A stretch of 64,000 bases of DNA, from NCBI GenBank assembly GCA_048938105.1, contig JBHLMN010000014.1, forward strand, positions 64,001 through 128,000. Reading direction: 5' to 3'. Shown here in pieces: positions 12,655 through 27,408 of the stretch. Within the stretch, counting starts at the first letter, position 1; every line of letters starts with the position of its first letter. The notes under the pieces are model-generated. The model did not search any database. It was not told the origin of the DNA and saw nothing but the letters and a program-made list of their open reading frames with translations. The stretch comes from Promethearchaeota archaeon (GTDB lineage Archaea; Asgardarchaeota; Heimdallarchaeia; Hodarchaeales; Hodarchaeaceae). The position numbers and the translations under genes are program-made.

Positions 12655-13131
12655 TCATAAAGTTGAGTTTGTGCTTCTTTCTTTTTCTTCCATTCTCAGT
12701 TTAGTACTACTTTCTACAGTACCATCTGTACGAATAACACGAGGGATTACAATAATGGTGAGTTTTGACTTCCCGTGTTTTATACGGAAACGGTTAATTG
12801 CATTTGCTCCCGAAAATGTCTCTTGAGATACAACCAAAGCAGATAAATCCGCTTCACTTGCTAATTTCTGATCCATTCCAAGGTCGTTTATAGTTGAGAT
12901 AAGAATATGGGTATTACGGCTTAAAAGATGATTTTCAACCTTTTTTTTACGAAATTGGAAACTTTGAATCATTTTAAAGTGTTTTTTCTTGTTCTTTTTC
13001 AAATAACTTGAGTTAATCAAACCAACATGGACACATTGACCGTAATAAGCAGCAATATCGAGGAATAATTTGTGTCCCCTGTGTAGGCGATCAAACGTCC
13101 CACCTAAACCGACGTTTTTATATTGTTTCAC
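12655..13131 (-). CDS. coaD: Phosphopantetheine adenylyltransferase (archaeal/eukaryotic type)
   Basis: GGTFDRLHRGH, LVVSQET and SSTKLR motifs. Confidence 0.9.
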   Translation of the reverse strand: MKQYKNVGLGGTFDRLHRGHKLFLDIAAYYGQCVHVGLINSSYLKKNKKKHFKMIQSFQFRKKKVENHLLSRNTHILISTINDLGMDQKLASEADLSALVVSQETFSGANAINRFRIKHGKSKLTIIVIPRVIRTDGTVESSTKLRMEEKERSTNSTL

Positions 13132-13314
13132 AATCTAAACTCCATGAATGAGTTTGGGAGGTTTAATCTAAAATTTCATTGTGCTGTAAAAATGAAATTG
13201 AAATGTTCAATACCTAGCTGGGTAAAACGTTTTAAAAACATACTAATTATAGAAAGGTTTTTTTATTCATTCCACAAAAATTTAAATGCGATGAAGGAAT
13301 AGATTCTGCTTTTC

Positions 13315-13566
13315 GAGGACCTGAGGATTTTAATGAATCATGGTGCAAATAAGCAGAGAAATCCGGAGCTCTTCAATCCGATAAGATTAGGAGACGGGCT
13401 CTCGCATGAGATTGGGTGAGTCACCCATCAATGAGCGGTAGGGTCAACCCTTCTAACCAACAGGAAACATTAGGATCGTTACTGCCCTTCACCAGAGAAC
13501 TCGACTGAGTTGGGAAAACCCTGTATGTGATGTCGCTAGAGTTAGTGTTAAGGGCTACAGATCCTT
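13315..13566 (+). ncRNA. Unidentified ~250-nt structured RNA
   Basis: GC-enriched intergenic island; TATA TTTAAAT at 13281-13287; terminal stem GAGGACCTG/CAGATCCTT; several long-range helices with G-U pairs on the + strand; T-tract after 13564. Confidence 0.65.
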
Positions 13567-13642
13567 TTAATTAATAAAGATAAAATTTAAGAGAAAGTTT
13601 TTATCAAATAGAAGAAAATAAAAGCACTAAGTTTTCTAATGG

Positions 13643-13680
13643 AAAAAAAGCAGGTGTCCTGCTGATCCTGCTGAAAAAAA
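13643..13680 (-). terminator. Hairpin plus T-tract terminator downstream of dnaG
   Basis: Minus strand T7-CAGCAGGATC-AGCAGG-ACA-CCTGCT-T6. Confidence 0.55.
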
Positions 13681-13689
13681 TGAGGGAAA

Positions 13690-14937
13690 TTATTCGGAGA
13701 ATGTGTAGATATCAATGTCTAAGGGTTTCTTTGTAACATCGTGTTGTTTAGCACCAACGATATTCTTTATTCCACGTTCTAGTGCAATATCAAGAAGCCT
13801 TTGGGTAATAATTCCGTCAAAAATTACAGTCTCTACATTTTTTGTCTCGAGAATGACATCTCGAAGTTCACTGATTGGTATATGTTCTTTTAAGACCTTT
13901 AATTTTTTTCCGAGTAGAATTGCTTCCTGTTCTGAGAGATTTTCGACAAATTGGCCGAAATTACGTGGTATTTTCGATGTTACAGAAGCATTTTTTTGTG
14001 ACTGAACAATAATGGGAATCTCTTTTGGTTCTATTTCTGATTGAGATTTATCTTGACTTTCTTCAGAAGTCTCTATACCTTCAGGAAGAATGTTCATCTC
14101 TTTCATTATTTGCTCAATTGGAATTTTAGTTCGTAGAGCTTTTAGAAGTTCTTTACTAGACAATTCTTCTACTTCACGATTTGGTGGGGCTTTAGCAACG
14201 TAGTCTAAATCAGTAAGGTGAATGAGTTCTCTAAGGATAAGATCCCCACCGTGGTCTCCATCTAAAAAGGCAGTTGTTACTTTTTTTCGAGTGAGTTCTA
14301 TTACATCTAATGGAACATTGGTTCCTTGGACAGCAATTACATTCCGAAAACCATGTTTTAAGAGATTGACAACATCAGCCCGCCCTTCCACAATGATTAA
14401 ATTATCACTCTCTTGAATGCCAGGGCCAGCAGGTAATTCTTCTTTTCCATATTTTTGAATAATACTGATTCGAGCTTCTTTGAGAACCTCCTCTAGAACA
14501 GAGATTGAATCAGGGGCGATCTCGTGATCCCATGTTTTCAGAATTTGAGATGCGCGTGTGATAATTTGCCTTCTTTTACTTTCACGAACGTCCTCAATTT
14601 TAAGCAGAGCAATTTTCCCAACACAGGGTCCAACACGATCTACAGTTTCTAAAGCAGCAGCAAGCAAAGCTGTCTCGACCCTGTCTAAAGAAGAAGGTAC
14701 TATAATAGTTCCAGTAGTTTTTCTTTGCTTCTTTTGGTATTGTAGTTTAACAGCAATTCTTCCTATTCTTGATGTTTTTTGTAATTCTCTTAAATCTAGG
14801 CCCTCACCAATTAATCCCTCAGTTTGGCCGAATAATGCTCCAATAATATCTGATCGTTCAGCCACTCCGCTAATACTAAATTTCTCGTGGATAAGGTACT
14901 TTACAGTTGAAGTATCGATATCCTCTTCGTTAACCAT
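13690..14937 (-). CDS. dnaG: Archaeal DnaG (TOPRIM; exosome-associated)
   Basis: IGALFGQTEGL, LRELQK, VEGRADV and FLDGDHGG motifs. ATG start MVNEED at 14937 preferred. Confidence 0.95.
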   Translation of the reverse strand: MVNEEDIDTSTVKYLIHEKFSISGVAERSDIIGALFGQTEGLIGEGLDLRELQKTSRIGRIAVKLQYQKKQRKTTGTIIVPSSLDRVETALLAAALETVDRVGPCVGKIALLKIEDVRESKRRQIITRASQILKTWDHEIAPDSISVLEEVLKEARISIIQKYGKEELPAGPGIQESDNLIIVEGRADVVNLLKHGFRNVIAVQGTNVPLDVIELTRKKVTTAFLDGDHGGDLILRELIHLTDLDYVAKAPPNREVEELSSKELLKALRTKIPIEQIMKEMNILPEGIETSEESQDKSQSEIEPKEIPIIVQSQKNASVTSKIPRNFGQFVENLSEQEAILLGKKLKVLKEHIPISELRDVILETKNVETVIFDGIITQRLLDIALERGIKNIVGAKQHDVTKKPLDIDIYTFSE

Positions 14938-15372
14938 GGTTGTTTCACCTCCAAAGGTTACTAGGTGAAACCACATATTTCATTATGATTGAAGAGATCC
15001 TCTTTGGTTTTAATGGTTTTGTTTAGTTATTATGAACATGATGAAAATAGTTAATGGAAAGTTAATGAGGTGATAATGATGATATGCAGTTCCACTTGCA
15101 TAATTGTCTTTATTTCTTTTTTTAGTAAGTTTACATTCTAAATTGATTTATTTGCCATTACTCTTTGAATTAATATCAGCTGAAAGTGATATCTTTAATA
15201 CATATATTTTAATATCCAGTCGGATTCATTCTAAATTCGTGATATCTTTTTAGTGCAAATATGTTTGTGAATAAACCTGCAGGACAAAAGTTTATTCATT
15301 TTGCTTGCTATAACAACTCACGAATTGAGAGAATTTTAAATTATGGGTAGATAGATTGATTGATTTAAATTC

Positions 15373-27185: not shown

Positions 27186-27289
27186 GGACTCGTGGCTTAG
27201 CTTGGATAGAGCATCTGCCTCCTATTTCTAAATCTATATAAGTTGAAAGAGATAGCAGAGGGTCGGGGGTTCAAATCCCCCCGAGTCCG
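27186..27289 (+). tRNA. tRNA-Arg(CCU) with canonical 37/38 intron (27225-27253)
   Basis: TCTGC-CT-CCT-A|29 nt|A-GCAGA; relaxed BHB. Confidence 0.9.
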
Positions 27290-27305: not shown

Positions 27306-27408
27306 GGGCCCTTGGCTTAGCTTGGATAGAGCGCTTGCCTCCGGAGTAAAAGATTGGTTTCCCAAATATTCTCTACAGAGGTCGTGAGTTCGAATCTCAC
27401 AGGGCCCG
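27306..27408 (+). tRNA. tRNA-Arg(CCG) with non-canonical intron at 41/42 (27349-27376)
   Basis: Central helix GGAG/CTCT, bulges TA|A and AC|A. Removal restores the CTTGC/GTAAG anticodon stem. Confidence 0.85.

Follow-up and report, generated by a model that had tools for sequence, protein, structure and literature searches.

The window analysed here, a stretch of 64,000 nt from a Promethearchaeota archaeon (contig JBHLMN010000014.1, positions 64,001 to 128,000 of the forward strand), carries at 13315-13566 a segment that very probably belongs to a three-hairpin archaeal box H/ACA guide small RNA (sRNA), a counterpart of Pab40, Pf7 and Afu4, with its own promoter composed of a transcription factor B recognition element (BRE) and a TATA box, and with three targets in large-subunit (LSU) ribosomal RNA (rRNA). 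This assignment draws on conservation, covarying structure, sequence motifs, complementarity to rRNA and the presence of H/ACA protein genes, all of which were observed directly. A sequence-only reading of the same segment had proposed a structured plus-strand RNA with its own promoter; a structured RNA with a promoter of its own was supported, but not the fold, nor the start, which we place at 13288, about 27 nt further upstream.

The segment is non-coding and lies in a 558-nt intergenic gap, within which it forms a G+C island (0.45-0.51, versus 0.22-0.33 in the flanks). BLAST searches with 13290-13580 found the RNA once in its own genome (5.85 Mb in 65 contigs) and as a single copy, at 72-88% identity, in each of the other genomes of the genus (20/20), with no convincing match in other families. 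A MAFFT alignment of the genus showed conservation beginning at the GC at 13288 rather than at 13315, and three local hairpins with a conserved ANA or ACA after each. The 59-aa open reading frame at 13123-13302, which overlaps the 5′ end of the RNA, had no Pfam match. The family- and phylum-wide search relied on a covariance model built here (R1), which recovers all 20 genus genomes and gives full-length matches in 61 of 150 sampled genomes of the phylum, distributed over 22 of 52 genera, many of them scoring 60-103 bits over 280-315 nt. Matches in family f3 (families are designated by such labels below) come from 14 of 31 genomes and have a compact form of 240-260 nt with abutting hairpins.

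RNAalifold divided the genus alignment into three domains, and the curated structure comprises 58 pairs. In this alignment 92.8% of cells are paired, versus 30-46% in a control in which the 3′ partners were slid by 1-3 columns; both sides have changed at 12 pairs, and no column shuffle out of 500 reached the observed covariation. Because MAFFT misaligned the upper stem of hairpin 3, that stem was counted by script. The phylum-wide alignment, which unites the genus with two distant families, keeps the full layout, with changes on both sides in 36 of the 58 pairs and with 92% of cells paired versus 36-45% when slid, this alignment being fitted to the model and hence biased toward the curated structure. 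G-U pairs favour the plus strand, so that the strand named in the sequence-only reading was borne out in the alignment. Comparative analysis supports three local hairpins. Every one of them combines a lower stem and a 6-bp upper stem, separated by an internal-loop pocket, with a kink-turn (K-turn) or kink-loop (K-loop) and an ANA/ACA box, which is the archaeal box H/ACA layout. The energy of the single-sequence fold is average for shuffled sequence (z = -0.23 on the plus strand and -1.42 on the minus strand). One further candidate helix, a leader/linker pairing UGAAG/CUUCA, was rejected: it occurs only in the close relatives of the window and shows no covariation. The elements of the RNA, all on the plus strand, are as follows.

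13250-13267 (+): promoter, a purine-rich BRE-like AGAAAG followed by a T-rich TATA box (TTTTTTTATT), conserved in 18/18 relatives examined
13288-13568 (+): predicted transcript, three-hairpin box H/ACA sRNA of ~281 nt, both ends deduced
13288-13298 (+): bulged strand of the predicted 5′ K-turn, with GC (canonical or C-stem), GAU (loop), GA and AGGA (non-canonical or NC-stem), resembling box C
13304-13358 (+): hairpin 1, compensatory changes in lower and upper stems
13304-11/13351-58 (+): hairpin 1 lower stem, covarying
13312-18 (+): hairpin 1 5′ guide UUCGAGG, invariant
13319-24/13338-44 (+): hairpin 1 upper stem, 6 bp with one bulge, one pair occurring in four Watson-Crick types
13325-37 (+): hairpin 1 K-loop GGA...AAUGAA with GA/GA; the closing 3b.3n pair is G.A or U.U in relatives
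13345-50 (+): hairpin 1 3′ guide GCAAAU, invariant
13359-13361 (+): hairpin 1 ANA box, AAA here, AUA or ACA in relatives
13362-13369 (+): non-bulged strand of the predicted 5′ K-turn, UCC, G, GA, GC, resembling box D
13376-13379 and 13463-13466 (+): closing helix 2, 5′ strand AUCC paired with 3′ strand GGAA
13387-13456 (+): hairpin 2, covarying, guide blocks conserved between families f1, f3 and f8
13387-93/13450-56 (+): hairpin 2 lower stem
13394-99 (+): hairpin 2 5′ guide ACGGGC
13400-05/13435-42 (+): hairpin 2 upper stem, 6 bp with a 2-nt bulge
13406-09/13430-34 (+): hairpin 2 K-turn, AAU bulge and GA/GA
13410-18/13422-29 (+): hairpin 2 apical stem, 8 bp, including GGGT/ACCC
13443-49 (+): hairpin 2 3′ guide GUCAACC
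13460-13462 (+): hairpin 2 ACA box, invariant
13473-13477 and 13560-13564 (+): closing helix 3, 5′ strand GGAUC paired with 3′ strand GAUCC
13484-13555 (+): hairpin 3, covarying stems
13484-92/13545-55 (+): hairpin 3 lower stem with a UU bulge
13493-99 (+): hairpin 3 5′ guide CAGAGAA
13500-05/13532-39 (+): hairpin 3 upper stem, 6 bp with a bulge of 0-2 nt, showing exchanges of CG to UA and AU to GC
13506-08/13526-31 (+): hairpin 3 K-turn, U-GA/GA-U
13509-25 (+): hairpin 3 apical stem-loop
13540-44 (+): hairpin 3 3′ guide AGUUA
13557-13559 (+): hairpin 3 ACA box, invariant
13565-13568 (+): T-run, likely archaeal terminator and 3′ end, judged from sequence

In all 18 relatives examined, the promoter block AGAAAG-N-TTTTTTTAWT precedes the conserved GC by 21-22 nt, and it is this archaeal TATA-to-start spacing, together with the onset of conservation, that leads us to place the 5′ end near 13288. 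The TATA box had earlier been located at 13281-13287, where the letters TTTAAAT are indeed present but are not conserved in relatives. At the other end, the tail matching the T-run is T-rich in many relatives. Among the helices outside the hairpins, closing helix 3 has changed on both sides at all 5 pairs, with 100% of cells paired phylum-wide, and occurs in variants such as GGAUC/GAUCC, GCGUC/GACGC and UCAGG/CCUGA; in closing helix 2 all 4 pairs have changed on both sides with 83% of cells paired phylum-wide, and its support within the genus is weaker.

The fold drawn from the single sequence does not withstand the same comparison. Of its terminal stem, GAGGACCTG/CAGATCCTT, the CCTG part varies (CACG, CCAG, CAGG) without compensation, GAGGAC serves hairpin 1 as its invariant 5′ guide, and the partner of GATCC is GGATC at 13473-13477. 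The side domain closed by GGATTT/AAATCC varies freely on its 5′ side but not on its 3′ side; GGAUUU is part of the K-loop, and AAAUCC consists of the ANA box and a K-turn strand. Local covarying stems take the place of the long rod (AGCTCTT/AAGGGCT, CTAA/TTAG and its other pairings), whose GGGT/ACCC element is a real stem, although one that forms the apical part of hairpin 2.

Two variations on the layout were seen in relatives. In G008, a stand-alone second hairpin 3 domain with its closing helix (L039, 614-797 on the minus strand of contig C251, 95.5 bits) is situated ~700 nt downstream of the full RNA. In G010 (L021), a 36-nt insertion between hairpins 2 and 3 contains a small hairpin and a run of seven T; transcription might terminate there, splitting the RNA into two transcripts in that species.

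In archaeal H/ACA motifs the upper helix measures 5-6 bp, 14-15 nt separate the ANA box from the target U, and a UNN may replace UN at the target (Muller et al. 2008, PMC2377435). All three hairpins here have upper helices of this length. As for spacing, the ANA box of hairpin 1 is 14 nt from the first target-pairing nucleotide of the 3′ guide; the ACA of hairpin 2 is 14 nt from A13446, the first A of AACCC, a spacing kept, as judged by eye, in f1, f3 and f8; and the distance in hairpin 3 is 16 nt, or 14 if the 2-nt UU bulge is not counted. At the sequence level, each hairpin contains a K-turn or K-loop with tandem GA/GA, the one in hairpin 3 having canonical G.A/A.G pairs in the window and two relatives. 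As to the proteins of the H/ACA ribonucleoprotein, the genome encodes Nop10 (42.1 bits) and Cbf5 with a dyskerin-like domain (54.8 bits, 337-aa frame). An Rfam scan of the whole window at gathering thresholds returned tRNAs and a HEARO RNA, and nothing at 13315-13566. In a permissive scan of 13150-13700, the only non-trivial match was to HgcG/Pab40 (RF00064), at 26.1 bits and a local E of 2.3e-5 (551 nt).

If the RNA operates like other archaeal H/ACA guides, L7Ae would bind the K-turn or K-loop of each hairpin, and Cbf5-Nop10-Gar1 its lower stem and ANA/ACA box, while the strands of the internal loop would pair with LSU rRNA on both sides of an unpaired U, which Cbf5 would convert to pseudouridine. 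In E. coli numbering, used for all targets below, hairpin 1 is predicted to address U2496, adjoining helix 89 of the peptidyl-transferase centre; hairpin 2, U2586, beside U2585; and hairpin 3, the loop of helix 69 at U1915 and possibly U1917. Transcription, the RNA ends, protein binding and pseudouridine formation are what we infer from sequence.

These predictions were read against published guides. Pab40 of Pyrococcus abyssi and its homologues Pf7 and Afu4 have three H/ACA motifs (Muller et al. 2008, PMC2377435). Motif 1 of Pab40 guides pseudouridine 2588 of P. abyssi 23S rRNA, as verified in vivo and in vitro, and motif 3 guides position 2016 in helix 69, whereas motif 2 is variable, acting at 1932 in P. 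abyssi and predicted in Afu4 and Pf7 to act at the position equivalent to 2678 (PMC2377435). Conversion to E. coli numbering uses an offset of 92 for P. abyssi domain V, which follows from the statement that Pab35 makes the pseudouridines that RluE, RluB and RluC make in E. coli (Muller et al. 2008, PMC2377435), i.e. 2549 = 2457, 2672 = 2580 and 2697 = 2605; with this offset, 2588 corresponds to 2496 and 2678 to 2586.

Since contig ends interrupt the LSU rRNA of the genome itself (C9:31-1435; end of C8, minus strand), pieces from relatives and the complete LSU of family f3 were added to its own fragments; no LSU rRNA was found in four near-complete relatives. Compared with that of relative G005, the LSU of this genome is longer by ~320 nt in domain V, where the extra sequence lies between the A loop and the region of U2586, and two more LSU 3′-terminal fragments are found at C8:27759-28068 and C8:46367-46669. 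Its small-subunit rRNA (C9:1695-3919, minus strand) is 2225 nt long versus 1478 positions in the model, i.e. it has large insertions. A genome-wide target scan was abandoned and scanning confined to rRNA, because chance matches in this A+T-rich genome were overwhelming. Scans with free pocket boundaries and G-U pairs gave best scores equal to those of shuffled controls, and only those under the published geometric rules ranked target sites usefully.

For hairpin 1, the rule-based scan ranks first in the genus the all-Watson-Crick site UUGC-UU-CCUCGA (4 + 6 pairs), and its position just 5′ of the conserved CCUCGAUGUCGGCUC identifies it as U2496. In the complete f3 genome G027 the top match is UUGC-UA-CCUCGAU, with 4 + 7 bp, a score reached in 3 of 100 shuffles. 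The unpaired N is U or A depending on the family, as expected for an unpaired position.

For hairpin 2, the top rule-based site is GGGUU-UA-GACCGU(C), i.e. U2586, with 5 pairs in one arm and 5 of 6 in the other; this rRNA site is identical in four families. U2554 in the A loop, adjoining the site first proposed for Afu4 motif 2, is a weaker candidate: it pairs well with hairpin 2 in f1 and f3 and poorly in f8, for which reason we keep it in second place. Two other sites were rejected. The hairpin 2 pocket (13441-13450 and 13395-13399) can form 15 bp with the LSU of its own genome (C9 ~645, minus strand; GGGUUGAUCU-UC-GCCUG), a match reached in 0 of 60 shuffles. This site, near E. coli position 733, violates the spacing rules; two other members of the genus have a different rRNA sequence here, and f3 has A as the target nucleotide, while the guide stays the same. 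The complementarity is species-specific or due to chance. The GGUUAAGGGCCC site, the top hairpin 2 match in one f3 genome, has a 5′ arm that is not conserved between species.

For hairpin 3, GUUA of the 3′ guide is complementary in every lineage to UAAC in the helix 69 loop (1911-1914), and the two sides of helix 69 differ between families together with the other guide strand. In f3, helix 69 is GGAGC-UAACUAUGA-GCUUC, with GAGCUUC as its 3′ strand, and the 5′ guide is AGCUC(A/U); the resulting duplex, CUAAC-UAU-GAGCU, has 4 + 5-6 pairs and is the top match in G027. In f1, f8 and f20, helix 69 is GGGAG-UAACUAUAA-CUCUC (L033, L032, L079, L081); the 5′ guide is AGAGAAC in f1, f8 and f25, and the 3′ strand CUCUCUU was seen in f1 and f8, the comparison being one-sided in f25, where helix 69 was not recovered, and in f20, where the guide was not inspected. 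This joint change of guide and helix 69 between families offers the best evidence for the predicted helix 69 target. We take the helix 69 of the phylum (GGGAGUAACUAUAACUCUCUU) to be close to the eukaryotic sequence, and its GGGAG-UAACUAUAA-CUCUC version to differ from the GGCCG...CGGUC of E. coli.

Several observations weigh against so complete an assignment. The HgcG score is far from the gathering threshold (26.1 versus 77 bits). The K-turn of hairpin 2 has two extra nucleotides on its non-bulged strand, and that of hairpin 3 has U rather than A at position 2b in 16 of 19 sequences. Each ACA lies inside an internal loop with a helix directly after it, which might affect Cbf5 binding; we know of no described archaeal H/ACA RNA with such a helix. 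The duplex of hairpin 2 with U2586 contains an A.G mismatch in the 3′ arm. The duplex of hairpin 3 with helix 69 is broken in its 3′ arm (1 + 4 bp) in this genus, where helix 69 is also outranked in the scan. By base-pair count, no predicted duplex clearly beats the best match in shuffled rRNA, which was as high in 29/100 shuffles for hairpin 1 and 15/100 for hairpin 2 in the genus, and in 32/100 for hairpin 3. The target assignments rely on agreement with the published orthologous sites and on conservation, not on pair counts.

Such imperfect K-turns, interrupted or mismatched duplexes and target scores not above those of shuffled controls, along with the similarly weak and species-variable motif 2 of Pab40, could be explained if hairpin 1 were the only true guide, hairpins 2 and 3 being degenerate or structural, for instance as rRNA-folding chaperones or as scaffolds for L7Ae and Cbf5. 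We regard this as unlikely, for no part of the RNA is better conserved across families than the pocket strands of these two hairpins, the 5′ guide of hairpin 3 changes in concert with helix 69, and the 14-nt spacing from AACCC to ACA is maintained in three families. Moreover, the best sites of both hairpins are those reported or predicted for Afu4, Pf7 and Pab40, and also, by numbering inference, those of the Haloferax volcanii RNA sR-h45.

A different question is posed by the 5′ motif. Its bulged strand is invariant in 18 of 19 genus sequences and is present in distant families, and the NC-stem pair at column 12/95 is exchanged (GC:5, AU:2, GU:1); from these sequences, the leader/linker motif is predicted to fold as a K-turn and to bind L7Ae. 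The resemblance of the 5′ strand to box C (RUGA) and of the linker to box D (NGA), together with the occurrence of Pyrococcus Pab21 with and without a C/D motif, might suggest that the H/ACA hairpins are fused, in a composite guide, to a functional box C/D methylation module of which the 5′ K-turn is a part. There is, however, no second C′/D′ pair and no guide stretch between the boxes, the box-like strands flank an entire H/ACA hairpin, and the motif is replaced in G016, one of the two most divergent members of the genus, by a plain 7-bp leader-linker helix (GUGGAGA/UCUCCAC). The other, G001, has a copy cut at a contig end and a leader near-identical to that of G016, which suggests that it also has a plain helix in place of the K-turn. 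We accordingly consider a composite guide very improbable, and interpret the 5′ motif as an addition to the H/ACA guide.

Hardly any credence is left for a new Asgard class of noncoding RNA, or a highly diverged SRP (signal recognition particle), RNase P or MRP RNA, since, even though no Rfam family matches at its gathering threshold and the minimum-energy single-sequence fold does use the proposed terminal stem, that fold has an unexceptional z-score, its terminal stem, side domain and rod fail the covariation tests that the three H/ACA hairpins pass, SRP and RNase P RNAs are encoded on another contig, and all sequence-level H/ACA hallmarks are present in the motif order and with the predicted targets of Pab40/Pf7/Afu4. 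The SRP RNA candidate (RF01857) is full-length (C52:297893-298199) and scores 70.3 bits, below the gathering threshold of 96.5, the SRP RNA of this lineage being diverged; the RNase P RNA (RF00373; C52:489555-489917) scores 137.1 bits, above threshold. Neither model matched at the locus in the gathering or the permissive scan. The SRP-like topology and the RNase P/MRP-like 3′ end that had been noted from sequence lose their footing along with the fold. That the genome is archaeal is shown by its matches to the archaeal models for rRNA, RNase P and SRP. What the sequence-only reading retains is its suggestion of a housekeeping RNA, which is supported for a structured, by all appearances independently transcribed RNA on the plus strand.

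The intergenic gap is flanked by two genes, which agrees with the position between coaD and dnaG given earlier.

12655-13131 (-): cytidylyltransferase-like gene, one flank of the gap
13690-14976 (-): Toprim/DnaG-like gene, other flank of the gap

Directly downstream of the latter, 13649-13663 on the minus strand contains a G+C-rich hairpin with a T-run behind it, and looks like the terminator of the Toprim/DnaG-like gene. Elsewhere in the window, the HEARO RNA (HNH endonuclease-associated RNA of IS605-type elements) is located at 1969-2195 on the minus strand (108.8 bits, threshold 83), and two tRNA matches on the plus strand, at 27186-27289 and 27306-27408, are 104 and 103 nt long versus 71 positions in the model, and probably both carry introns or insertions.

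The RNA is an unannotated member of a known archaeal H/ACA family, with lineage-specific additions, and its description fills an annotation gap left by Rfam; the model R1 and the alignments could serve as a seed for a broader Rfam family. A full-text literature search found no paper joining Asgard with H/ACA and pseudouridylation terms. The extra K-turn and the closing helices constitute a concrete variation on the architecture of the H/ACA particle. We suggest tentatively, and with more doubt than confidence, that the phylum-wide form may be a distinct architectural variant, in which a fourth L7Ae site, the C/D-like K-turn of the 5′ leader and first linker, clamps hairpin 1 and covarying closing helices enclose every ACA in an internal loop; if this is true, and if the additions work in assembly or processing, they would represent an undescribed way to build or stabilise a three-enzyme H/ACA particle.

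Among known RNAs, archaeal SRP RNA and RNase P RNA resemble the RNA described here in size, in G+C content above that of the genome and in having their own promoters, but have no conserved motif or helix in common with it. Eukaryotic H/ACA small nucleolar RNAs employ the same guide mechanism, and we take yeast snR46 (25S pseudouridine 2865) and snR191 (2258/2260) to serve the same rRNA positions as the predicted targets; these are two-hairpin H-box/ACA RNAs without K-turns, with one RNA per site, and are likened to it by their sites, not by homology. At least two of the predicted sites, in helix 69 and at 2496, are also modified in eukaryotes.

In Haloferax volcanii, the two-hairpin H/ACA sRNA sR-h45 guides U2605, between helices 90 and 93, with one hairpin, and both U1940 and U1942 of helix 69 with the other (PMC7075261). 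By numbering inference, these positions are the ones predicted here for hairpins 2 and 3 (U2586 and U1915/U1917 of E. coli), and sR-h45 sets a precedent for the use of one pocket for both helix 69 uridines, with more than two nucleotides left unpaired. It differs from the RNA described here in having two hairpins, none of them for U2496, and the likeness concerns the target sites, not the sequence.

The closest counterparts are Pab40 (P. abyssi), Pf7 (P. furiosus) and Afu4 (Archaeoglobus fulgidus), which have three H/ACA motifs in the same order, every one with its ANA box and its K-turn or K-loop, and sites matching the predicted U2496, U2586 and helix 69 targets in motifs 1, 2 (as a predicted site) and 3, respectively. 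The guides of motif 1 of Pab40 are similar as well, with CGAGGA on one strand and GUGC(A/G)A on the other, while hairpin 2, predicted to act at U2586, differs from the P. abyssi motif 2, which acts at 1932. Unlike these RNAs, most lineages of the phylum add a 5′ C/D-like K-turn, linkers between the hairpins and closing helices, all of which are missing from the compact form of family f3. One three-guide RNA for the same three sites, adjoining helix 89, beside U2585 and in the helix 69 loop, appears to be common to Thermococcales, Archaeoglobus and this phylum, and partly the same sites are served in Haloferax, a pattern of sharing that speaks for a guide RNA of great age, and for pseudouridines that are likewise old and matter to function.

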